NCBI RefSeq assembly: GCF_003334405.1 | Contig: NZ_QOWM01000005.1 | Direction: 5' to 3' (one strand) | Length of the DNA stretch: 64,000 nt | From: Escherichia coli | Lineage (GTDB): Bacteria > Pseudomonadota > Gammaproteobacteria > Enterobacterales > Enterobacteriaceae | Shown here: one piece after another, positions 15,961 through 64,000 of the stretch | Layout of the letters: every line of letters starts with the position of its first letter | Numbering within the stretch: position 1 is the first letter of the stretch | Notes under the pieces: generated by a model | Told to the model about the DNA's origin: nothing | What the model saw: the letters and a program-made list of their open reading frames with translations, nothing else | Database searches by the model: none | Translations under genes and position numbers: made by a program

Positions 15961-16342
15961 ATGTGCAAATTTGTTGCCATAACGCGGTGCGTGCCGTTGG
16001 GTTTGCCCGTAATTCGGTGAGCGCCGGTGATGCCACCTGAGCGCCTTCCAATGATAGCGGTTCGTCAGTACCCAACCGCCAGCTGTTACAGCGACTGCCT
16101 TGCGGCAGCATCGCGATTTTTTCTGGCGTCAGTTGCAGCACTTGATCGGGACTGACGGTTAATGCGCGCAGAACATCGCTCACTAAAGGATCAGTCAGGG
16201 CGGGAAGATCGTTTGCCACCATCACCAGACGGACGTGTGCCGGGATCGCAATGGCAATCTCCCCCTGCAACGCGCCAGGGCGACGCAGCGACCACTGGGT
16301 AATGCCCAGTTGTTGTAACTGCCAGTCTCGTCGGGATGTCAT
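15929..16342 (-). CDS. holD: DNA polymerase III psi subunit
   Basis: 137-aa ORF MTSRRDWQLQQLGITQWSLRRP; overlaps rimI start by 32 bp. Confidence 0.95.
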   Translation of the reverse strand: MTSRRDWQLQQLGITQWSLRRPGALQGEIAIAIPAHVRLVMVANDLPALTDPLVSDVLRALTVSPDQVLQLTPEKIAMLPQGSRCNSWRLGTDEPLSLEGAQVASPALTELRANPTARTALWQQICTYEHDFFPRND

Positions 16343-16444
16343 AGCGAATCGCTCCTGTTGTCAGGGGCGCAAATATAGCAAATTCGTCGATACCGCGCCA
16401 ACATATGGCTATAATCGCCGCCAGTATCAATTGAGGAGCATTCC

Positions 16445-17476
16445 ATGTCTGCATTTACCCCGGCAAGTGAAGTCTTGCTGCGTCACAGTGATGATTTCGA
16501 ACAAAGCCGTATTCTGTTTGCCGGAGACTTACAGGATGACCTGCCCGCGCGTTTAGATACCGCGGCCAGCCGTGCTCATACCCAGCAATTCCACCACTGG
16601 CAGGTGTTAAGCCGCCAGATGGGGGATAACGCCCGTTTTAGTCTGGTCGCCACGGCGAATGATGTCGCAGATTGCGATACGCTGATTTACTACTGGCCGA
16701 AGAACAAACCGGAAGCCCAGTTCCAGTTGATGAATTTACTTTCTCTGCTGCCGGTGGGGACGGATATTTTTGTCGTTGGCGAGAACCGCAGCGGCGTGCG
16801 CAGCGCCGAGCAGATGCTGGCAGATTATGCGCCGTTGAATAAAGTCGACAGCGCTCGTCGCTGTGGCCTCTATTTTGGTCGTCTGGAAAAACAGCCAGTA
16901 TTTGATGCGGATAAATTCTGGGGCGAATACAGCGTCGATGGCCTGACGATCAAAACGCTGCCGGGCGTGTTTAGCCGCGACGGTCTGGATGTCGGTAGCC
17001 AGTTGCTGCTCTCGACGTTAACTCCGCACACGAAAGGTAAAGTGCTGGATGTCGGCTGTGGCGCGGGGGTGCTTTCAGTTGCCTTTGCGCGCCATTCACC
17101 GAAAATTCGTCTCACCTTGTGCGATGTCTCTGCCCCGGCGGTAGAAGCCAGCCGTGCGACGCTTGCGGCCAACGGTGTTGAAGGTGAAGTCTTTGCCAGC
17201 AACGTCTTTTCCGAGGTGAAAGGTCGTTTTGATATGATCATCTCCAACCCGCCGTTCCACGATGGGATGCAAACCAGCCTGGATGCGGCGCAAACGCTGA
17301 TTCGCGGCGCGGTGCGTCATCTTAATAGCGGCGGCGAGCTGCGAATTGTAGCGAACGCCTTCCTGCCTTATCCGGACGTGCTGGATGAGACATTTGGCTT
17401 CCATGAAGTGATTGCGCAAACCGGGCGTTTCAAGGTGTATCGCGCCATTATGACCCGCCAGGCGAAGAAAGGTTAA
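16445..17476 (+). CDS. rsmC: 16S rRNA m2G1207 methyltransferase
   Basis: 343-aa [31 protein letters not shown] with SAM-binding motif [12 protein letters not shown]. Confidence 0.95.
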
Positions 17477-17485
17477 GTATCCCGC

Positions 17486-17660
<175 letters not shown>

Positions 17661-17707
17661 CTGATGGACATTTTTCCAGCAATTACACCTCCGGCGATAA
17701 TTAACTA

Positions 17708-17735
17708 TTGACGAAAAGCTGAAAACCACTAGAAT
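17708..17735 (+). promoter_or_regulatory. sigma70 promoter of the tRNA-Leu gene (TTGACG - 16 bp - TAGAAT, GC-rich discriminator)
   Basis: hexamers at 17708-17713 and 17730-17735; gcgcctccg discriminator typical of stable-RNA promoters; about 40 bp upstream of the tRNA. Confidence 0.6.
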
Positions 17736-17776
17736 GCGCCTCCGTGGTAGCAATTCTTTTTAAGAATTGATGGTAT

Positions 17777-17863
17777 GCGAAGGTGGCGGAATTGGTAGAC
17801 GCGCTAGCTTCAGGTGTTAGTGTCCTTACGGACGTGGGGGTTCAAGTCCCCCCCCTCGCACCA
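17777..17863 (+). tRNA. tRNA-Leu (anticodon CAG), single copy
   Basis: 87-nt sequence gcgaaggtggcggaattggtagacgcg...ctcgcacca with encoded CCA end, long variable arm and anticodon loop cttCAGgt. Confidence 0.95.
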
Positions 17864-17901
17864 ATTATCTTTACTTCCTTTCTTGTTTCTTCCCTGTTTT
17901 G

Positions 17902-18138
17902 TCATCCCTGATTCAAATTCACTATCATCAGCATGATGCCAGCAATAAGCGCCAGGCACGATGGTAGCAAAATGTAATGCCGCAACTGTTTGTGATACAG
18001 CATCACAGGCGTCAATACTAATCCCATCAGAATGACAATCCGCCACTGATCCGGCGATAAATCCGCATACATCAGCCCTGCAATCAGCAATCCCGGCAGC
18101 AACACTCCCCAGCCACTGCCCAGCATACGTTGCAACAT
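17902..18138 (-). CDS. yjjZ: small Fur-regulon membrane protein YjjZ (78 aa)
   Basis: MLQRMLGSGWGVLLPGLLIAGLMYADLSPDQW from ATG at 18138; divergent from fhuF. Confidence 0.8.
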   Translation of the reverse strand: MLQRMLGSGWGVLLPGLLIAGLMYADLSPDQWRIVILMGLVLTPVMLYHKQLRHYILLPSCLALIAGIMLMIVNLNQG

Positions 18139-18154
18139 GGTTTCATCTCTTTCA

Positions 18155-18262
18155 TTGATAATGATAACCAATATCATATGATAATTTTTATCATTTGCAA
18201 GCCAGAGAAATCCCTTGCTATCGGGTAAACCTATCGCTAGGATTAGCAATCATTATCATTTA
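18155..18262. promoter_or_regulatory. cluster of Fur-box-like sites in the yjjZ-fhuF divergent promoter region
   Basis: gataatgataacc (18157-18169), atgataatttttatcatt (18178-18195), aatcattatcatt (18248-18260) resemble the GATAATGATAATCATTATC Fur consensus. Confidence 0.65.
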
Positions 18263-18278
18263 GATTACTATCCCGATT

Positions 18279-19067
18279 ATGGCCTATCGTTCCGCACCGC
18301 TCTATGAAGATATCATCTGGCGAACGCATCTCCAGCCACAGGATGCTGGGCTTGCACAAGCCGTACGTGCGACGATCGCCGAACATCGTGAACATTTGCT
18401 GGAGTTTATCCGTCTGGATGAACCCGCCCCGCTTCGCGCCATGACGCTGGCGCAATGGTCATCACCGAATACGCTAAGTTCCCTACTGGCGGTCTATTCC
18501 GATCATATCTACCGCAACCAACCAACGATGATCCGCGAGAACAAGCCGCTGATCTCACTGTGGGCACAATGGTATATCGGCCTGATGGTGCCACCATTAA
18601 TGCTGGCGCTGCTGACGCAGGAAAAAGCATTAGATGTGACGCCGGAACATTTCCACGTTGAGTTTCACGAAACCGGACGCGCCGCCTGTTTCTGGGTCGA
18701 TGTGTGTGAAGATAAAAACGCAACACTACATTCGCCGCAGCAGCGAATGGAAACGTTAATCAGCCAGGCGCTTGTTCCGGTTGTGCAGGCACTAGAAGCA
18801 ACGGGAGAGATTAACGGTAAACTTATCTGGAGCAATACCGGTTATTTGATCAACTGGTATCTGACTGAGATGAAACAGCTGCTCGGCGAGGCGACGGTTG
18901 AATCGCTGCGCCATGCCCTCTTTTTTGAGAAAACGCTCACGAACGGTGAAGATAATCCACTCTGGCGTACCGTGGTGCTGCGCGACGGCCTGCTGGTGCG
19001 CCGCACTTGCTGCCAGCGTTATCGCTTACCGGATGTGCAGCAATGTGGCGATTGTACGCTGAAATGA
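18279..19067 (+). CDS. fhuF: ferric-siderophore reductase FhuF (C-terminal 2Fe-2S Cys motif)
   Basis: 262-aa ORF MAYRSAPLYEDIIWRTHLQ ending CCQRYRLPDVQQCGDC. Confidence 0.95.
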   Translation: MAYRSAPLYEDIIWRTHLQPQDAGLAQAVRATIAEHREHLLEFIRLDEPAPLRAMTLAQWSSPNTLSSLLAVYSDHIYRNQPTMIRENKPLISLWAQWYIGLMVPPLMLALLTQEKALDVTPEHFHVEFHETGRAACFWVDVCEDKNATLHSPQQRMETLISQALVPVVQALEATGEINGKLIWSNTGYLINWYLTEMKQLLGEATVESLRHALFFEKTLTNGEDNPLWRTVVLRDGLLVRRTCCQRYRLPDVQQCGDCTLK

Positions 19068-19073
19068 AAGCAC

Positions 19074-19095
19074 TGCCGGGGAAGTAAACCCGGCA
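19074..19095. terminator. hairpin between convergent fhuF and bglJ (probable bidirectional terminator)
   Basis: tgccggg-gaagtaaa-cccggca. Confidence 0.5.
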
Positions 19096-19104
19096 TCATG
19101 CAAA

Positions 19105-19782
19105 TTAATAGGGATGCAACACATTACTTGCTTCGCAATGCCGCATACATAACAGAATATCTGCGGCCTCCAACAACCCTGCATCAGAACTGACGCCCAG
19201 TTTCGACATCACATTAAATTTATGTGCACGGATCGTTTTAATATTGCGTTTAAGCTGCTCGGCAATTTGTGTCATTGAGTAGCCACGCGACATAAAGCGC
19301 AATATTTCTCTCTCCGTCGGGCTTAGCGTCCGGCTTTGGTTAATGTACCACTGATTGTTCAGTCGGTCGGTCGCCTGACGTACACCATTTAATGACAAAA
19401 AGAGTTCCTGATGAAAAATCTCCAGCGTTGACGCTTTACTTAATACACCGTCCAGCGGTGATGGCGACAATGAACCGATCAGCCGAGCTTCAATATCATC
19501 ATCCGCAATAACTAAACGTCGGGTACGCGGAAACTTAATCGCCAGTTCAGTCAGGCAAGATAATCCCTCTCTGCGTTCACTTCTCATGGCAGAAAAAGAA
19601 AAAATGACCGCCGCAAACGAGATCCGCGACATGGCATCCTGAAATGACTCCTGACTGGTATAGGTATGGAGCTTATAAGGGTTACCTGCAAACTTTCTGA
19701 ATAAACTCTCAATACCGATACTGCTCATGACGCATTTTTCTATGAGTGCGACATTTCTCTTCTTAATTCGGCTGTGTTCCAT
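19105..19782 (-). CDS. bglJ: LuxR-family transcriptional regulator BglJ
   Basis: 225-aa ORF with C-terminal LuxR HTH; overlaps yjjQ 3' end by 43 bp. Confidence 0.9.
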
Positions 19783-20465
19783 TCTGCGGCATCTCCATAA
19801 ACAGAAGGCAAGTTAAGTTCTCTTGCACCCTGCGCGCTATTTATCCATGCATACATTTCAGCGTTGCTGTGAATTGCCAGTCGACGCATCGCACTGTTTT
19901 TTTGGGCGCTGATAGTTTTATTACTTTTCTTAAGCAATGAAGCTATCTGGTTGATGCCCCATCCTTTACCTAATAGCCGCAGTACCTTGCGCTCTGAAAG
20001 AGTGAGAATGACGGAGCGATAGCTAAAATCATGAGTTTCAGTCATTGCCGGAGAGGTCAGCATGGCGCTGATACGCTCTGCGTGCGTATTGCCGGAACGT
20101 ACGGTCTTGACCAGATTCTCAATGGGTTCACCATCAGACAATAACGTCGCCGTAGGGCACATGAGCAGTTCTACTGCCTGGGAATACCAGGAGCGTGACA
20201 CCATGAAAACCCAGTGAATTTCCCGATATTGTGAGATTAAAGAATAATAATGTTCACAAACAGAACGTGGATCTTCACTTTCACCGGCTAAATCAGCAAT
20301 GACTAATCCGGAACGACGTAATTGTAATAAGGTAAGGTCCTCCGCAGAGGCGCTGGATATTATTTCATATTCAGGGAAGTGAGTCCTCATGACCTCTTTT
20401 AACCCTGCTTGCATAACAGGTATTTTACTGATAACAATTCCATTTTTGCAGCATCCTGGCAACAT
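19740..20465 (-). CDS. yjjQ: LuxR-family transcriptional regulator YjjQ
   Basis: 241-aa [28 protein letters not shown]; AT-rich upstream region. Confidence 0.9.
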
Positions 20466-21083
20466 ATTTCCTCCACATCCACTGTCTAAAAATCATGATG
20501 GTTTATTCAGGATATTCATTCCTTAAATGTTTCCAGCAAATTAATAGATTAAGCGAATAAATTATCCTTAGCATTCACTTTCATATCAGCATACTCCTGC
20601 TGCACAACAACTCCACAGCATGTGTCAGAAGGTTAGCATCAAATGATAACCTGGTGAAATAGCCTGGAGACATTTAAAATATCTACATTAAGTTGTTAGA
20701 AATACTTAATGAAAAACAGAGTTCTCATTCATTTAATTTATAATTAACTGATATCCCTTCCCGCAGAATGCAAAATCACACAATCAATATTTGTTCAATA
20801 AAATCTGATAGTTTTAACTTGTAAAAATTAAAAAACGCGCCCAGTTATCTTTTATCCTGATTCGTAAAGGCTAAAGAATAAATTCATTATAGTGATAATA
20901 TTCATGTGATAATTTGTTTGCGGCGAGAGATAATTCCCTTTTTATCACCGAGCTTGTCCCGATAACCAGGATTAATCAGCGCAATTTTGATCTTAACCTA
21001 CCGCAAAACTACCGTGCTTCATGATACAAATGGATTCTCATTATCTGAACAATACGCAGCACGTCTATGACAAAGGGCGAGTT

Positions 21084-21854
21084 ATGCAAACTGAGCAACA
21101 GCGAGCCGTAACACGGCTTTGTATCCAGTGTGGATTATTTCTTTTGCAACATGGTGCGGAAAGCGCGTTGGTTGATGAGCTTTCCTCACGACTGGGTCGG
21201 GCGTTGGGGATGGACAGCGTCGAAAGTTCTATCTCTTCGAACGCCATAGTGCTGACAACCATTAAAGATGGGCAATGCCTGACATCGACACGTAAAAATC
21301 AAGATCGCGGCATTAATATGCATGTGGTGACTGAAGTCCAGCACATTGTGATTCTGGCGGAGCACCATCTGCTGGATTACAAAGGCGTAGAGAAACGATT
21401 TAGCCAAATTCAGCCATTACGTTACCCAAGATGGCTGGTAGCCTTAATGGTTGGCCTTTCCTGCGCCTGTTTCTGTAAACTCAATAAAGGTGGCTGGGAT
21501 GGTGCCGTCATCACCTTCTTTGCCAGTACGGCCGCGATGTATATCCGCCAGCTGCTGGCACAACGTCATCTTCATCCACAGATCAACTTTTGCCTTACCG
21601 CTTTCGCCGCCACCACCATTTCCGGATTGCTTTTGCAACTCCCTACTTTCAGCAATACCCCCACCATCGCGATGGCCGCCAGCGTTCTGCTGCTGGTGCC
21701 GGGCTTTCCGTTGATTAATGCCGTCGCCGATATGTTTAAAGGCCACATCAATACCGGACTGGCACGCTGGGCGATCGCCAGTCTGCTGACACTGGCTACC
21801 TGCGTCGGCGTGGTGATGGCACTGACGATTTGGGGGCTACGCGGATGGGTGTGA
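21084..21854 (+). CDS. yjjP: inner membrane protein YjjP (ThrE-like putative exporter component)
   Basis: 256-aa product from ATG 21084 ([17 protein letters not shown]); track ORF starts 21021. Confidence 0.85.
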
Positions 21855-22318
21855 TCGAGTTTCTGTTTACATTGGCGCAGGATATGATCCTCGCCGCCAT
21901 TCCAGCGGTCGGCTTTGCGATGGTGTTCAACGTTCCCGTTCGGGCGTTACGCTGGTGTGCGCTGCTTGGCGCGATTGGTCATGGTTCACGAATGATCTTA
22001 ATGACCAGCGGGCTGAATATTGAGTGGTCAACTTTTATGGCTTCTATGCTGGTCGGCACCATTGGTATTCAATGGTCGCGCTGGTATCTGGCGCATCCGA
22101 AAGTGTTTACCGTGGCGGCCGTTATCCCTATGTTCCCTGGCATATCGGCTTATACCGCAATGATTTCGGCGGTAAAAATCAGCCAGTTAGGTTACAGCGA
22201 GTCATTGATGATTACCCTGTTAACCAACTTTCTTACAGCTTCATCGATTGTTGGTGCGTTATCCATCGGTCTTTCCATTCCTGGATTATGGTTGTACCGC
22301 AAGCGCCCTCGCGTATAA
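21845..22318 (+). CDS. yjjB: inner membrane protein YjjB
   Basis: 157-aa hydrophobic product [26 protein letters not shown]; overlaps yjjP 3' end. Confidence 0.85.
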
Positions 22319-22425
22319 AATTGCCTCGCTTAAAGCACACGGATGAGAGACAGCCTCCTCTCCTCCATGTGTTACTATAAAAGTTATCTCCCTTCTCGTT
22401 CATCGTTCCATATTTGAGAAACAGT

Positions 22426-22965
22426 ATGTCTTCCAGAGTTTTGACCCCGGACGTCGTTGGTATTGACGCCCTGGTACACGATCACCAAACCGTTCTGGCA
22501 AAAGCTGAAGGCGGTGTGGTTGCCGTATTTGCTAACAATGCCCCGGCGTTTTATGCCGTCACGCCTGCACGCCTGGCTGAACTGCTGGCGCTGGAAGAAA
22601 AGCTGGCGCGTCCGGGAAGCGATGTCGCTCTGGACGATCAACTCTATCAGGAACCGCAAGCCGCTCCCGTTGCTGTACCCATGGGGAAATTCGCCATGTA
22701 TCCGGACTGGCAACCCGATGCCGACTTTATCCGCCTGGCGGCGCTATGGGGCGTGGCGCTAAGAGAGCCGGTGACCACCGAAGAACTGGCCTCATTCATT
22801 GCCTACTGGCAGGCGGAAGGTAAAGTCTTTCACCATGTACAGTGGCAACAAAAACTGGCGCGCAGCCTGCAAATCGGCCGTGCCAGCAACGGCGGACTGC
22901 CGAAACGAGATGTGAATACGGTCAGCGAACCTGACAGCCAAATTCCACCAGGATTCAGAGGGTAA
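22426..22965 (+). CDS. dnaT: primosomal protein DnaT
   Basis: 179-aa product [30 protein letters not shown]. Confidence 0.95.
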
Positions 22966-22967
22966 CG

Positions 22968-23705
22968 ATGAAAAACATTGGCGACCTGATGCAACGCCTG
23001 CAAAAAATGATGCCTGCCCATATCAAACCTGCGTTTAAAACGGGTGAAGAACTACTGGCCTGGCAGAAAGAACAAGGGGCGATCCGCTCCGCCGCTCTCG
23101 AACGTGAAAATCGGGCGATGAAAATGCAGCGCACCTTTAACCGCTCCGGTATTCGTCCACTGCATCAGAACTGCTCCTTTGAGAACTATCGCGTTGAGTG
23201 TGAAGGGCAGATGAATGCGTTAAGCAAAGCGCGCCAGTATGTCGAAGAGTTTGACGGCAACATCGCCAGCTTCATCTTTTCTGGTAAGCCAGGAACCGGC
23301 AAAAACCATCTGGCGGCGGCAATCTGCAACGAGCTGCTGCTACGCGGTAAATCCGTATTGATCATCACCGTGGCCGATATTATGTCGGCGATGAAAGATA
23401 CCTTCAGGAATAGCGGTACCAGCGAAGAACAACTGCTTAACGATCTGAGCAACGTTGATCTGCTGGTGATCGATGAGATCGGCGTGCAGACCGAATCGAA
23501 ATACGAAAAAGTGATCATCAACCAGATCGTCGATCGCCGCTCTTCTTCCAAACGCCCAACCGGGATGCTGACCAACAGTAATATGGAAGAGATGACCAAG
23601 TTGCTGGGCGAACGCGTGATGGACCGTATGCGCCTGGGTAACAGTTTGTGGGTGATCTTCAACTGGGATAGCTACCGTAGCCGTGTAACAGGTAAAGAGT
23701 ATTAA
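22968..23705 (+). CDS. dnaC: DNA replication protein DnaC (helicase loader)
   Basis: 245-aa ORF with Walker A GKPGTGKNHLAAAI; 2-nt gap after dnaT. Confidence 0.97.
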   Translation: MKNIGDLMQRLQKMMPAHIKPAFKTGEELLAWQKEQGAIRSAALERENRAMKMQRTFNRSGIRPLHQNCSFENYRVECEGQMNALSKARQYVEEFDGNIASFIFSGKPGTGKNHLAAAICNELLLRGKSVLIITVADIMSAMKDTFRNSGTSEEQLLNDLSNVDLLVIDEIGVQTESKYEKVIINQIVDRRSSSKRPTGMLTNSNMEEMTKLLGERVMDRMRLGNSLWVIFNWDSYRSRVTGKEY

Positions 23706-23750
23706 TCCCCGTTTCTGGCGGTATACTGCGACACAATTCCACCTTGAGTA

Positions 23751-24248
23751 ATGATGATGAAAACTGTTAAACATCTTCTGTGCTGTGCCATTGCCGCCAG
23801 CGCATTAATTTCCACCGGGGTGCATGCTGCGTCCTGGAAAGATGCGCTCTCCAGCGCCGCCAGCGAACTTGGCAACCAAAACAGCACGACACAGGAAGGC
23901 GGTTGGTCGCTCGCGTCATTAACTAACTTGCTTAGCAGCGGGAACCAGGCCTTAAGCGCAGATAACATGAACAACGCCGCAGGCATTCTGCAATACTGCG
24001 CGAAGCAAAAGCTGGCTTCGGTAACCGATGCCGAAAACATCAAGAATCAGGTGCTGGAAAAGCTGGGCCTGAACAGTGAAGAGCAAAAAGAAGACACCAA
24101 CTATCTGGACGGTATTCAGGGTTTGCTGAAAACCAAAGATGGTCAGCAACTCAATCTGGATAACATCGGAACGACTCCGCTGGCAGAAAAGGTGAAAACC
24201 AAAGCCTGCGATCTGGTGTTAAAGCAGGGGCTGAACTTCATTTCCTGA
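23751..24248 (+). CDS. yjjA: periplasmic protein YjjA (signal peptide)
   Basis: 165-aa ORF MMKTVKHLLCCAIAASALISTGVHA. Confidence 0.85.
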   Translation: MMMKTVKHLLCCAIAASALISTGVHAASWKDALSSAASELGNQNSTTQEGGWSLASLTNLLSSGNQALSADNMNNAAGILQYCAKQKLASVTDAENIKNQVLEKLGLNSEEQKEDTNYLDGIQGLLKTKDGQQLNLDNIGTTPLAEKVKTKACDLVLKQGLNFIS

Positions 24249-24501
24249 ACCGCGAAACGCCGCGTTTTAGCTGTTACCCGGCTGACGCGGCTCTCTCCTG
24301 CCCTTTTCCCTGCTCCTGGACGGTTTTCCCCCTGTTACACGGGAAGCGACCGCGATCAAAAAAGTCTGTTTATAAACTAATTCCTAACAACATCGCATTT
24401 TTTTGACACTAGAATTGCAGCAATATGGCGACGCCATTACATTGTGCTTCTCAAAAAGCTTAAACGTTGGCTAAACGGCCCGGTTTAGTGAGGATCGCCC
24501 G

Positions 24502-26793
24502 TTGTCAGAACTACTCTCTTTCGCCCTTTTTCTCGCCTCTGTGCTGATTTACGCATGGAAAGCGGGACGTAACACCTGGTGGTTTGCAGCCACATTAACG
24601 GTGCTGGGGCTATTTGTCGTTTTAAATATCACCCTGTTTGCCAGCGACTATTTTACTGGCGATGGTATTAACGACGCGGTTCTCTATACCTTAACCAACA
24701 GCCTGACCGGTGCTGGCGTCAGCAAATACATCCTGCCGGGTATCGGCATTGTGCTGGGGCTGACAGCGGTGTTCGGTGCGCTGGGCTGGATCCTGCGCCG
24801 TCGTCGTCATCATCCGCACCATTTTGGTTACAGCCTGCTTGCGCTCTTACTGGCGCTGGGTTCAGTGGATGCCAGCCCGGCATTTCGTCAGATAACGGAA
24901 CTGGTGAAATCCCAGTCACGCGACGGCGACCCGGACTTTGCGGCTTATTATAAAGAGCCGTCGAAAACTATCCCTGACCCGAAACTCAACCTGGTTTATA
25001 TCTACGGCGAAAGTCTCGAGCGAACCTATTTTGATAACGAAGCTTTCCCGGATCTCACGCCTGAACTGGGCGCGTTGAAAAATGAAGGCCTGGATTTCAG
25101 CCACACGCAGCAGCTGCCAGGAACGGATTACACGATTGCGGGCATGGTGGCTTCTCAGTGCGGCATACCGCTGTTTGCCCCCTTTGAAGGCAACGCCTCC
25201 GCCTCTGTCTCCAGCTTCTTCCCGCAGAACATCTGTCTGGGCGATATCCTGAAAAACTCGGGTTATCAGAACTATTTCGTGCAGGGCGCGAATCTGCGTT
25301 TTGCCGGTAAAGATGTGTTCCTGAAATCGCACGGCTTCGACCACTTATACGGCTCAGAAGAGCTGAAAAGCGTGGTGGCCGACCCGCACTATCGCAACGA
25401 CTGGGGATTCTACGACGATACCGTTCTCGATGAAGCGTGGAAAAAGTTTGAAGAGCTTTCCCGCTCAGGTCAGCGATTCTCACTGTTTACCCTGACGGTC
25501 GATACCCATCACCCGGATGGTTTTATCTCGCGCACCTGTAACCGCAAAAAATATGATTTTGACGGTAAGCCTAATCAGTCATTCAGCGCGGTAAGTTGCA
25601 GCCAGGAGAACATCGCGACGTTTATCAACAAAATCAAAGCGTCACCGTGGTTTAAAGATACCGTCATCGTCGTCTCTTCTGACCATTTAGCGATGAACAA
25701 CACGGCGTGGAAATACCTCAATAAGCAGGATCGCAATAACCTGTTTTTTGTCATTCGTGGCGACAAGCCGCAGCAAGAGACGCTGGCAGTGAAGCGTAAC
25801 ACGATGGATAACGGCGCGACGGTGCTGGACATTCTCGGTGGCGATAACTATCTCGGACTTGGTCGTAGCAGTTTATCCGGGCAGTCGATGTCGGAAATCT
25901 TCCTCAATATCAAAGAGAAAACATTGGCGTGGAAGCCAGATATCATCCGCCTGTGGAAATTCCCTAAAGAGATGAAAGAGTTCACCATCGACCAGCAGAA
26001 AAACATGATTGCCTTCTCGGGTAGCCATTTCCGTTTGCCGCTGCTGTTGCGGGTTTCAGACAAACGCGTGGAACCGCTGCCGGAAAGCGAATACTCAGCA
26101 CCGCTGCGTTTCCAGCTGGCCGATTTCGCTCCACGCGACAATTTCGTCTGGGTTGACCGTTGCTACAAGATGGCACAACTCTGGGCTCCGGAACTGGCAC
26201 TTTCCACCGACTGGTGTGTCTCGCAGGGGCAGCTTGGCGGTCAGCAAATTGTTCAGCATGTTGACAAAACAACATGGAAGGGCAAAACGGCATTTAAAGA
26301 TACGGTCATCGACATGGCGCGTTACAAAGGCAATGTCGATACGCTGAAGATTGTTGATAACGATATTCGCTACAAAGCCGACAGTTTCATCTTTAACGTC
26401 GCCGGTGCGCCAGAAGAGGTGAAACAGTTTAGCGGGATTTCCCGTCCGGAGTCGTGGGGCCGCTGGTCCAACGCGCAGCTGGGCGATGAAGTAAAAATCG
26501 AGTACAAGCATCCGCTGCCGAAGAAATTTGACCTGGTGATTACCGCCAAAGCATACGGCAATAACGCCAGCCGTCCTATTCCGGTACGCGTAGGCAATGA
26601 AGAACAAACTCTTGTGCTGGGCAATGAAGTGACCACCACCACACTGCATTTCGATAACCCAACCGATGCCGACACACTGGTAATTGTGCCGCCGGAACCT
26701 GTCTCAACCAACGAAGGGAATATCCTCGGACACTCGCCGCGTAAGCTCGGGATCGGCATGGTGGAAATTAAAGTGGTAGAACGTGAAGGGTAA
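24502..26793 (+). CDS. opgB: phosphoglycerol transferase I (OPG biosynthesis)
   Basis: 763-aa ORF starting at TTG ([22 protein letters not shown]); N-terminal TM helices plus sulfatase-like domain. Confidence 0.95.
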
Positions 26794-49134: not shown

Positions 49135-49519
49135 CATTCTCGAGCGTCGCACTACGCCAACCGCCATTATCCCAGACCAGATCAAACGTTAGCGGTTCAT
49201 CGTCGTGGTACAGCATTATCTCAAGGCTGATCGCCAGCGTGTGGCTGTACGCTTCTTTCAGATTGACCTGCAACGCCGCAATCCGTGGCTCATGAAATAA
49301 CAGTGCAGAACGCAGCTGACGGCAATACCAGCTCTGGAGATGTTTGTCGCTCTGGTTATGCACTTGCCACTCGGGCATGCCTGAAACAAGTAATGACGGT
49401 AATGCCGAATGAGGAGAATTAAAAAGAGTGAGGAGATCGCTACATATTGATTTACGCAGCGATGACGTTTTATTGCCTGAAATTTCAGGTAAAACAGCCT
49501 GACGTGATTGGCGCATCAT
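49127..49519 (-). CDS. iraD: anti-adaptor protein IraD (RssB inhibitor)
   Basis: 130-aa product [30 protein letters not shown]; overlaps hypT 3' end by 8 bp. Confidence 0.9.
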
Positions 49520-50191
49520 TTTGCGCACTCCTGACGTTTAGCAACATATGCGGCTTGCCCTGAACACCGGGCACCACTGTATTGATGCTCATTTTCCATA
49601 GCCATTCCCTTTTGTTCATTACATCCATGTCAGTCTGAGACAGGCCTGAATCCTGTCAGCAAAGTATAAAACCTTACTTGCCTATGAATATCTACTGACT
49701 TTTCAGGAAAAAAGTCATGATTTGATAAAAATCATCAAACTCAAAAAAAAACCGCTAGTATATTCTGAATATTCCGAATAGTTACGTAGATGAAAATACT
49801 TGTCACCACCGCTACTTAATTCCGGTGTGAAATTATTTATTTCCGCATAATCAGCCATGTATTATTTGAAACAATTAGTTTGTAAATAATATAAATTGAT
49901 AACATATCAAATACATCAAAAATACCATTCACAGGCATTATTAATATAGACATCAATATAGCAACATCAAATTCCAATTAGTAATAAGATATGCTTTTAA
50001 ATTGCATGAAAATAATTTCAAATGAGCGTTTTTTGATACTTTAGAGTGTTTCCTACCCTTTAATATCACCGTGTAGAGTTGATATCACTACAACAGAAAC
50101 ATGCATGTCATTTGTTTACTTCTCATTTTACTACAGAAAAATTTATCTATTTTTCTAAACATCAGTGAAATACTCATAAAAGGTAACTATT

Positions 50192-51022
50192 ATGTCTATG
50201 CCATTAAGCAATACCCTTCAGAGCCAAATTATTACAGATAATCACTTCCTTCATCATCCAAAAGTCGACAGTGAGTTAACACGTAAATATGAACGTGCAC
50301 GCCTGGATACGGAAAATATCTATCTTCTGCCTCTTGCTCGTGGCAATAACCATAATTACGATGGAAAAAGCGTTGTCGAAATTAGAAAACTTGATATTAG
50401 TAAAGAGTCCTGGCCATTTAATTATGTGACAGAAGCATGCAGAGAATCCGATGGTATTACAACAACAGGACGTATGCTCTATCGAAACTTGAAAATCACC
50501 TCAGCTTTAGACGAAATATATGGTGGCATATGTAAAAAGGCGCATGCTGCTACAGAATTAGCAGAAGGTTTACGGCTAAATTTATTTATGAAGAGCCCTT
50601 TCGATCCTGTTGAGGACTATACAGTTCATGAAATAACATTAGGCCCTGGTTGCAATGTTCCAGGTTACGCCGGAACCACGATAGGATATATTTCAACCCT
50701 TCCAGTTTCTCAGGCAAAAAGATGGACCAATGAGCAGCCAAGAATTGATATCTATATTGATCAGATAATAACTGTCTCAGGGGTAGCAAATTCTTCCGGA
50801 TTCGCCCTTGCCGCATTACTTAATGCTAATATTGAGATGGGAAATGACCCAATCATTGGTATAGAAGCCTATCCTGGTACCGCGGAGATCCATGCAAAAA
50901 TGGGATATAAAGTTATCCCCGGTGATGAAGATGCGCCACTCAAACGCATGACTCTGCAACCGTCATCTCTTCCAGAACTGTTTGAATTAAAAAATGGTGA
51001 ATGGAATTATATTGGTAAATAG
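50192..51022 (+). CDS. yjiC: uncharacterised protein YjiC (276 aa) on an AT-rich islet
   Basis: ORF MSMPLSNTLQSQIITDNHFLHHPKVDSELTRKYERARLDTENIYLLPLARG preceded by about 660 bp of AT-rich non-coding DNA. Confidence 0.85.
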   Translation: MSMPLSNTLQSQIITDNHFLHHPKVDSELTRKYERARLDTENIYLLPLARGNNHNYDGKSVVEIRKLDISKESWPFNYVTEACRESDGITTTGRMLYRNLKITSALDEIYGGICKKAHAATELAEGLRLNLFMKSPFDPVEDYTVHEITLGPGCNVPGYAGTTIGYISTLPVSQAKRWTNEQPRIDIYIDQIITVSGVANSSGFALAALLNANIEMGNDPIIGIEAYPGTAEIHAKMGYKVIPGDEDAPLKRMTLQPSSLPELFELKNGEWNYIGK

Positions 51023-62778: not shown

Positions 62779-63333
62779 TTATTGATACTGAACCTTGAAG
62801 GTCGCATCCGCATTAGCAGCACCCGGGGTTGCCTCGCCGATTGCATAATAACGCGCCTGGAACGGAATGGTGTTGGTACCGTTATTCAGGGTTGTTTGTG
62901 CACTAAATGTCGCACCGTCCAGCGTCAGCTCATTTCCTGTTCTGTCCAGTATCTGCACACCAACATTTGTTGCGCTACCCGCAGCTGAACTCTGCAGAGC
63001 CAGTACTTTAGGATGAGCACTGTCAATCGCAGTCCCCAAGAAGGCAACAGCGGCTTTTGTGGCAACACTGGTATCGCAATCATTCAGCTGAATGTTAAAA
63101 CCGACAGCAGAGCTGGTTGCTCCAGTCTGCTTCAGACTAGCGGTACGAACCTGGCCCAACTGAACGGTTTGATCAACAGATCCTGCATCAACTGCGCAAG
63201 CGGCGTTAACAACTTCCCCTTTAAAGTGAACGGTCCCACCATTTACCGTCGTGGGTGTAGTTTCAGCCAGAGCCGCTGTAGAACTCAGGGACAGAGCCGA
63301 CAGAACAACAATTGCCAGAGTTTTAATTTTCAT
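62779..63333 (-). CDS. fimA: type 1 fimbrial major subunit (a non-K-12 allele)
   Basis: 184-aa [51 protein letters not shown]; RBS aaaggaaagc. Confidence 0.95.
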
Positions 63334-63452
63334 ACTGCTTTCCTTTCAAAAAACTATTTCTAAATCGACATGGGCAGTCGTTCCGTACACTTTGTTTTGT
63401 CAACGAGTTTGACTGCCAACACTGCACAGTTTCCCCCCAAAAGATGAAACAT

Positions 63453-63767
63453 TTGGGGCCATTTTGACTCATAGAGGAAAGCATCGCGCACAAACTTTTT
63501 CAGTTTATTTGTTGGCTTTATATTCTATTGTTATCTTTATTTATAGATTTTTATATTGCATGAGGTGGTTTTTGGAGAGAAGAATGAGGAAGTTGCTTCG
63601 AGACACAGAAACGTTAGCTTTACATTTAGCGGAGGTGATGTGAAATTAATTTACAAGAGAAATGATTTACATATCAAACAGTTAGATGCTTTTTGTCGTT
63701 TTATAATATTTTTATGCTTGAGAAAAAATACGTAACTTATTTATGATATGGACAGTTTTGGCCCCAA
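63453..63767. other. fim invertible element (fimS) bounded by 9-bp inverted repeats TTGGGGCCA / TGGCCCCAA
   Basis: ttggggcca at 63453-63461 and tggccccaa at 63759-63767, about 315 bp apart, between fimE 3' end and fimA. Confidence 0.9.
63718..63748 (+). promoter_or_regulatory. fimA promoter inside fimS (TTGAGA - 18 bp - TATGATA), reading on the plus strand away from fimA
   Basis: only good sigma70-like hexamer pair in the element; -10 ends about 10 bp before the fimE-proximal repeat; fimA is on the minus strand at lower coordinates. Confidence 0.5.
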
Positions 63768-63814
63768 TTGTCTTGTATTTATTTGTTTTTTACCTTTACT
63801 ATCAATAAGTTAAA

Positions 63815-64000
63815 TTAAACCTCTTCTCTTTTTAATTTTTCGTTTATAAGATTATTTCTTTCCCATAATCCGGCAAAACGAGCAGCATTACTGGCGGTAT
63901 AACGCACAGTATGGCGAATATTTCGATGCCCGAGATAATCCTGAATTAAACGGGTATCTGCACCACGCTCCGCCAGTTCATAACCGCAAGCATGCCTTAA
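63815..64000 (-). CDS. fimE: fim switch recombinase FimE, 3' end only (gene continues past window end)
   Basis: minus-strand frame ends ...RFAGLWERNNLINEKLKREEV-stop at 63815-63817; tyrosine-recombinase C-terminal motif HTVRY. Confidence 0.85.
   Translation of the reverse strand, partial: LRHACGYELAERGADTRLIQDYLGHRNIRHTVRYTASNAARFAGLWERNNLINEKLKREEV

Follow-up and report, generated by a model that had tools for sequence, protein, structure and literature searches.

An AT-rich control region with divergent core alleles between yjjQ-bglJ and yjjP of Escherichia coli

On the chromosome of Escherichia coli, a gap of 618 bp separates yjjQ, on the minus strand, from yjjP, on the plus strand (20466–21083; coordinates refer to the window, the whole stretch of 64,000 nucleotides that was analysed). 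The first-pass annotation had described about 620 bp of AT-rich DNA controlling two divergent units, and the exact values, 618 bp at 33.8% GC as against 51.2% for the window, agree with that description. Such a region raises the question of what it controls, which property of its DNA would do the work, whether its composition betrays a foreign origin, and how far its sequence is held constant within the species. It is not a rarity: a 951-bp query over the gap finds a match in 5425 of 5426 complete E. coli genomes, and its identity to strain W5-6 is 100%.

The locus and its regulation

The gene order, as given by RefSeq for W5-6 and K-12 MC4100, is rsmC, tRNA-Leu, yjjZ, fhuF, bglJ, yjjQ, gap, yjjP, yjjB, dnaT, dnaC, yjjA, opgB. 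Open reading frames in the window and the RefSeq annotation of matching genomes place fhuF beyond bglJ and dnaT-dnaC beyond yjjB, the context of the orthologous locus. The K-12 region has the same genes in the same order, with a 618-bp gap and a 43-bp overlap of yjjQ and bglJ, as in the window. The genes on either side of the gap are as follows.

19105–19782, minus strand: bglJ, 225-aa open reading frame, annotated by RefSeq in W5-6 and K-12; LuxR/GerE-type transcription factor, second gene of the yjjQ-bglJ operon
19740–20465, minus strand: yjjQ, annotated 241-aa open reading frame; LuxR/GerE-type transcription factor, first gene of the operon
21084–21854, plus strand: yjjP, divergent, ThrE-family membrane protein; annotated start ATG at 21084
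21845–22318, plus strand: yjjB, by annotation the partner of yjjP, whose end it overlaps by 10 bp

Both regulators contain a Pfam GerE domain, at residues 153–206 of YjjQ (E = 1.1e-7) and residues 152–203 of BglJ (E = 2.4e-12). BglJ scores 383 bits against the NCBIfam BglJ equivalog (cut-off 176), and YjjB 323.6 bits against NCBIfam PRK09917 (cut-off 249). Translation of yjjQ begins at the ATG at 20465–20463 on the minus strand, and the 3′ 43 bp of the gene (19740–19782) overlap the start of bglJ, as verified codon by codon, leaving no room for a separate promoter-free gap. The overlap and the LuxR type of both genes had been read correctly from the outset. In K-12 the two genes are co-transcribed (PMC5025477).

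On the other side of the gap, an in-frame ATG at 21021 would give a 277-aa form of YjjP but is probably not the start. The annotated start at 21084 is preferred because Escherichia sp. E1V33 lacks an intact reading frame from 21021, because AAGGG sits 8–12 nt upstream of 21084, and because similarity to proteins of other genera starts at residue 1 of the 256-aa form. The "555-bp" intergenic region of a 2008 abstract is presumably 20466–21020, the gap up to the older ATG at 21021. Stratmann, Madhusudan and Schnetz reportedly found in 2008 that H-NS binds the centre of this region, distal to both promoters; LeuO is said in the same work to bind the centre, positions distal to the yjjQ promoters, and one site overlapping the yjjP promoter.

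A substantial literature bears on this regulation. Passages in later papers, citing Stratmann et al. (2008), state that in K-12 both yjjQ-bglJ and the divergent yjjP are under repression by H-NS, against which LeuO acts (PMC5025477, PMC3950696); other such passages state that LeuO de-represses yjjQ-bglJ in K-12 (PMC5025477, PMC4264507). In an hns stpA mutant, expression of the operon would otherwise occur (PMC3950696), and bglJ and leuO, owing to their repression by H-NS, need constitutive alleles for their action to be seen (PMC2646131). By genomic SELEX with K-12, one H-NS site and one site for the RpoD holoenzyme of RNA polymerase were assigned to the spacer between yjjP and yjjQ (PMC3946193). 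Under laboratory conditions, induction of the native operon by LeuO yields too little BglJ to close the feedback loop (PMC5025477).

An H-NS-silenced control region with LeuO as anti-silencer, as proposed in the first-pass annotation, is thus documented in K-12, and the window carries the same locus. This regulatory reading is right and has been known since 2008 (Stratmann et al., J Bacteriol 190:926); because the regulation has been described for that long, recognition of the locus adds nothing new. The points added here are modest and comparative, namely the apparent ancestry of the cassette, a core that seems to be constrained in composition only and has divergent alleles, and natural IS1 deletions. 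In all likelihood the gap is a shared control region of yjjQ-bglJ and yjjP-yjjB, silenced by H-NS and antagonised by LeuO.

The mechanism may be pictured as follows. The very AT-rich and TpA-rich DNA of the gap would bind H-NS, nucleating it in the AT-richest core through AT content and TpA steps. From there H-NS might spread or bridge to both promoter-proximal flanks and would keep both divergent units nearly silent under laboratory conditions. LeuO, a LysR-type regulator, would bind the same region and restructure or displace the H-NS complex, whereupon yjjQ-bglJ would be de-repressed; BglJ, paired with RcsB, would then activate leuO, bgl and other loci; for leuO and bgl, activation by BglJ-RcsB has been shown in K-12. 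The locus is a node of the H-NS/LeuO/BglJ-RcsB circuit, which controls cryptic and virulence-associated genes of E. coli.

The closest parallels lie within the same circuit. The promoter regions of the bgl operon and of leuO are likewise AT-rich regulatory DNA, silent in the laboratory, and repression of these loci is relieved by an hns mutation, by LeuO or by an IS insertion (PMC2646131, PMC5025477, PMC3950696). The bgl operon differs in that a further H-NS site lies downstream of its promoter, whereas the gap between yjjQ and yjjP controls two divergent units. A second parallel is the spacer between nanC and fimB, which is long and AT-rich and binds RNA polymerase and H-NS in vitro, as does that between yjjP and yjjQ (PMC3946193). 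The fimE-fimA region in the window has a GC trough comparable to that of the gap. The nanC–fimB and fim spacers, however, have specific regulators of their own, and fim has an invertible switch; a repeat search of the gap between yjjQ and yjjP found no inversion or repeat system.

Base composition, A-tracts and curvature

For GC content, the gap ranks among the poorest 1.1% of 618-bp windows, and its AT content lies well over the genome average, as is the case for H-NS-silenced promoters. The GC minimum, 25–26% in windows of 150–200 bp, is found around 20700–20915, and TpA steps amount to 8.8% in the gap versus 4.5% in the window. The AT-richness noted earlier for yjjQ and bglJ themselves is borne out: the genes have 45.0% and 45.1% GC, with GC3 values of 43% and 47% as against 57–63% in neighbouring genes, and the 1361-bp cassette that they form falls in the lowest 6.5% for GC among windows of equal length.

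Comparable GC troughs occur within the window only at about 49.3–50.7 kb (yjiC/iraD) and 63.2–64 kb (fimE-fimA). The former, at about 49330–50740 and spanning yjiC, iraD and hypT, is richer in AT than any other stretch of the window, GC falling to 28.8% in the 618 bp from 49661, and IS1 is present there in some genomes. The latter, the fimE-fimA region with the fim switch (about 63170–64000), has 33% GC; IS1 is found there in some genomes, and 2638 genomes match at 90–95% identity.

AT-rich DNA may also be curved, and a rival account holds that silencing works mainly through intrinsic curvature, such that phased A-tracts rather than AT content recruit H-NS. H-NS has indeed been described as a binder of curved AT-rich DNA (PMC3946193), and AA/TT steps are phased at 10.8–10.9 bp in 20866–21065 (sub-windows 20866–21015 and 20916–21065), a signal reached by at most 1% of shuffles, uncorrected for 10 sub-windows. 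This is, however, the only phased stretch. Phasing at 10–11 bp is absent over the whole gap, where 32% of shuffles reach the observed power, and in the AT-richest core, where 17–41% do so. Tracts of A or T occur at the frequency expected from composition: the gap holds 12 runs of at least 4 nucleotides, compared with 9.7 ± 2.8 in composition-matched shuffles, and 5 runs of at least 5, compared with 3.2 ± 1.6. The A-tracts named in the first-pass annotation do exist, but neither in excess over composition nor in phase overall, and the profile of curvature and AT content that it proposed confirms AT-richness but confines phasing to 20866–21065. The gap does not have the enriched and phased A-tracts of intrinsically curved DNA, and we regard curvature as an improbable main cause of silencing.

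The reading preferred here is that AT content and TpA steps recruit H-NS. The sequence TCGATAAATT, taken as the H-NS high-affinity motif, finds its best match in the gap at 8 of 10 positions, no better than in shuffles.

History of the yjjQ-bglJ cassette

The low GC content of yjjQ and bglJ had been taken to suggest an acquired regulatory cassette. Taken further, this idea would make the region together with yjjQ-bglJ a recently acquired small genomic island, its AT-richness inherited from the donor and its silencing by H-NS a response to xenogeneic DNA only. Two features of the locus lend themselves to such an account: the base composition is deviant, both in the cassette (45% as against 51% GC for the window) and at its third codon positions, and about 1.2 kb separate the 3′ end of bglJ from a tRNA-Leu gene. 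H-NS, moreover, is credited with a preference for foreign AT-rich DNA (PMC2646131, background).

The distribution of the cassette speaks against recent import. A scan for YjjP, with one genome per species, left 80 loci from Enterobacteriaceae, and in 75 of them homologues of YjjQ (47–97% identity) and BglJ (35–98%) lie divergently upstream of yjjP; the five exceptions comprise four loci that end early upstream and one (L036) with a BglJ match alone. Genera with the cassette include Escherichia, Citrobacter, Salmonella (arizonae, diarizonae), Klebsiella, Raoultella, Enterobacter, Lelliottia, Leclercia, Kluyvera, Kosakonia and Phytobacter, among others. Presence is thus neither patchy nor strain-specific, whether judged by nearly all of the 80 loci or by the 5425 of 5426 complete E. 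coli genomes that carry the region.

Nor is the deficit in GC peculiar to E. coli. In nearly every locus the cassette lies below its flanks (43–53% versus 50–59%), and the first 400 bp upstream of yjjQ have 25–44% GC in nearly all loci, for genomes of about 50–57%. The other marks of a genomic island are missing: no integrase, transposase or other mobility genes and no direct repeats flank the cassette, and the tRNA-Leu gene is not adjacent to it but is kept apart by yjjZ and fhuF. Recent acquisition is accordingly very unlikely. Because the cassette is syntenic in nearly all sampled genera, any acquisition would predate their divergence; of the earlier suggestion, AT-richness stands, whereas recent acquisition does not.

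Comparison of these loci indicates instead that the sampled genera of Enterobacteriaceae inherited the cassette, with the AT-rich region upstream of it, from a common ancestor. The persistent AT-richness would be better explained by a maintained composition than by recent foreign origin. Across genera, alignment of the region upstream of yjjQ is confined to the start codon with its ribosome-binding site and to a few short blocks shared with Citrobacter and Salmonella; beyond those blocks, the cross-genus alignment revealed no conserved operators upstream of yjjQ.

Core and flanks of the gap

Within E. coli the gap is not uniform. Seven strains were compared: the window, K-12, 19A14, 2013C-4361, O157:H7 SS52, O25b:H4 and UPEC-455U. 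Three parts can be distinguished by their variation.

20466–20699, minus strand: yjjQ-proximal part; mean pairwise difference 1.0% among the seven strains; 2 of 234 bp (0.9%) differ from K-12
20700–20960, no strand: core; mean pairwise difference 7.3%, maximum 9.9%, among the seven strains; 22 of 261 bp (8.4%) differ from K-12
20961–21083, plus strand: yjjP-proximal part; mean pairwise difference 0.7% among the seven strains; 1 of 123 bp (0.8%) differs from K-12

Over the whole gap the window and K-12 differ at 25 of 618 bp (96.0% identity), and both promoter-proximal parts are about 99% identical. The yjjQ-proximal part probably holds the yjjQ promoter or promoters, the 5′ untranslated region and regulator sites, and the yjjP-proximal part falls within the only significantly phased AA/TT stretch. 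The core, at 29.9% GC in the window and 27.6–32.3% across the seven strains, is likely to be the zone in which H-NS nucleates.

At third codon positions the difference is 1.5% for yjjQ and 5.0% for yjjP. Set against these values, the 7.3% difference in the core suggests that the core drifts at a roughly neutral rate, and the flanks appear to be under purifying selection. A similar pattern is seen in other Escherichia species, where the flanks are largely conserved and the centre, with insertions and deletions, is barely alignable. It seems that the core acts through its composition rather than through a specific sequence. A core whose composition is kept while its sequence drifts is relevant to the question of sequence versus composition in H-NS silencing.

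The core allele of the window is in the minority, being matched at 99% identity or more in 220 of 5421 genomes (about 4%); 4643 genomes match at 90–95%. Because this allele is 8.4% removed from that of K-12, the strength of silencing could differ in the window strain. Despite the divergent core allele, the regulation itself is presumably the same as in K-12.

The following elements were located in the gap.

20470–20474, minus strand: Shine-Dalgarno sequence GGAGG of yjjQ, read from the sequence
20561–20589, minus strand: predicted sigma-70 promoter of yjjQ, CTGATA, 17-nt spacer, GATAAT, from a consensus scan
20636–20650, plus strand: predicted MarA site (marbox) GCATCAAATGATAAC, an exact match to the site predicted in ETEC H10407
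20709–20737, plus strand: predicted promoter toward yjjP, ATGAAA, 17-nt spacer, TTTAAT, located by reading the sequence
20906–20934, plus strand: second predicted promoter toward yjjP, GTGATA, 17-nt spacer, GATAAT, from a consensus scan

The Shine-Dalgarno sequence is the most widely shared of these: GGAG is invariant in all 15 aligned genera, and 14 of the 15 have G as the fifth base. For yjjQ the pair CTGATA-17-GATAAT, and for yjjP the pair ATGAAA-17-TTTAAT, are promoters predicted in an earlier study (PMC3946193); the former was found independently by the consensus scan. Both hexamers of each are invariant in the seven E. coli strains, and the block AAGGATAA at the predicted yjjQ promoter is shared with Citrobacter and Salmonella. 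The predicted positions are presumably correct. A strong MarA peak was seen by ChIP-seq between yjjP and yjjQ in ETEC H10407, and a marbox was predicted under it (PMC5684230). None of 300 shuffles reaches the marbox match found here, and the site is invariant in the seven strains.

Repeats in the gap are limited to two 14-nt inverted pairs, likely to be chance matches in AT-rich DNA, and direct repeats are absent. One of the pairs, TTAAATGTTTCCAG at 20523–20536 and CTGGAGACATTTAA at 20664–20677, is 93% complementary, and between its two arms lie the predicted yjjQ promoter and the MarA site; this pair too may be due to chance in DNA so rich in A and T.

The nearby fhuF is an iron-regulated gene. 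Because of this neighbour, and because bglJ rises in serum (PMC4145685), a Fur box was looked for in the gap; the candidate was rejected, since its best match, 14 of 19 bases, is reached by 8% of shuffles.

By E. coli standards the gap is unusually long, and in 23 of the 80 loci, from Klebsiella, Raoultella, Kluyvera, C. amalonaticus, C. sedlakii and others, the space between yjjQ and yjjP is occupied by a 2.6-kb pobR-pobA pair (for example L060, 3641–5723). PobA, a 4-hydroxybenzoate 3-monooxygenase, scores 651 bits on TIGR02360, and its partner is an AraC-type regulator. A remnant of this pair was considered and rejected, as tblastn found no similarity to PobR or PobA in the E. coli gap even at E = 10. 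That the gap owes its length to a hidden gene, whether for a small protein or a small RNA, or to decayed remains of genes such as pobR-pobA is therefore extremely unlikely: several open reading frames of 21–36 aa are present, but none lies in a conserved stretch and those in the core are not preserved, an Rfam search up to E = 1 gave no match, a terminator scan gave no terminator-like site, and the core changes about as fast as third codon positions, with insertions and deletions in other Escherichia species. A control region for two divergent units remains the preferred account of the gap.

Natural structural variants are also found. Among the matches listed, at least two complete natural E. 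coli genomes have an insertion in the gap, in each case an IS1 immediately upstream of yjjP accompanied by a deletion. In the cat isolate PS3Tanimalfeces2 (L003, 5792–7733) yjjQ and the gap are lost in their entirety, together with the 5′ part of bglJ and the first codons of yjjP; in the isolate of NZ_OY754834 (chromosome GPT21-003_1; L089, 1674–3956) yjjQ lacks its 5′ part and only about 200 bp of the gap are left. Natural isolates in which IS1 has removed the core exist. The yjjQ gene of UPEC-455U/190220, a strain from a patient with recurrent urinary infection, carries the annotation of a pseudogene with a frameshift (L088, 240–966).

The IS1 deletions of the two isolates resemble the adaptive insertions seen during evolution in the mouse gut, where IS insertions in the gap were recurrent and beneficial and yjjP expression rose about 2-fold (PMC5094792). 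The yjjPB pair has been termed a succinate exporter (PMC7236211, PMC13192267). It is conceivable, though we think it rather unlikely, that the gap consists of two conserved promoter modules around a 260-bp core constrained in composition only, with core alleles 7–10% apart, and that these alleles and the removal of the core by IS1 could set thresholds of silencing, notably releasing the yjjPB exporter. If so, threshold-setting alleles and deletions would parallel, in nature, the IS insertions for which there was selection in the mouse gut.

The surroundings of the locus show variation of their own. The stretch 16000–25250 has no full-length match among the complete genomes compared, and its part 16000–19000 has a best match of 98.8%; because a full-length match is lacking, it appears that the window strain is absent from those genomes or that the stretch is a mosaic of different E. 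coli lineages. W5-6, identical over 20300–21250, shows scattered differences from the window as well as a different tRNA-Leu region. In the window there is one tRNA-Leu(CAG) gene (17777–17863), as against three in tandem (leuV, leuP, leuQ) in K-12 and W5-6, and directly upstream of it lies a REP-like match to naRNA4 (65 bits, 17555–17637), with 17461–17637 also flagged. Only 507 of 5426 complete genomes are colinear over 16000–19000, which indicates that the copy number of the tRNA-Leu array varies among strains. Finally, fhuF (18279–19067) has 46 differences from K-12 in 789 positions (94.2% identity), compared with 98–99.7% identity in neighbouring genes, and this points to a locally divergent fhuF allele.
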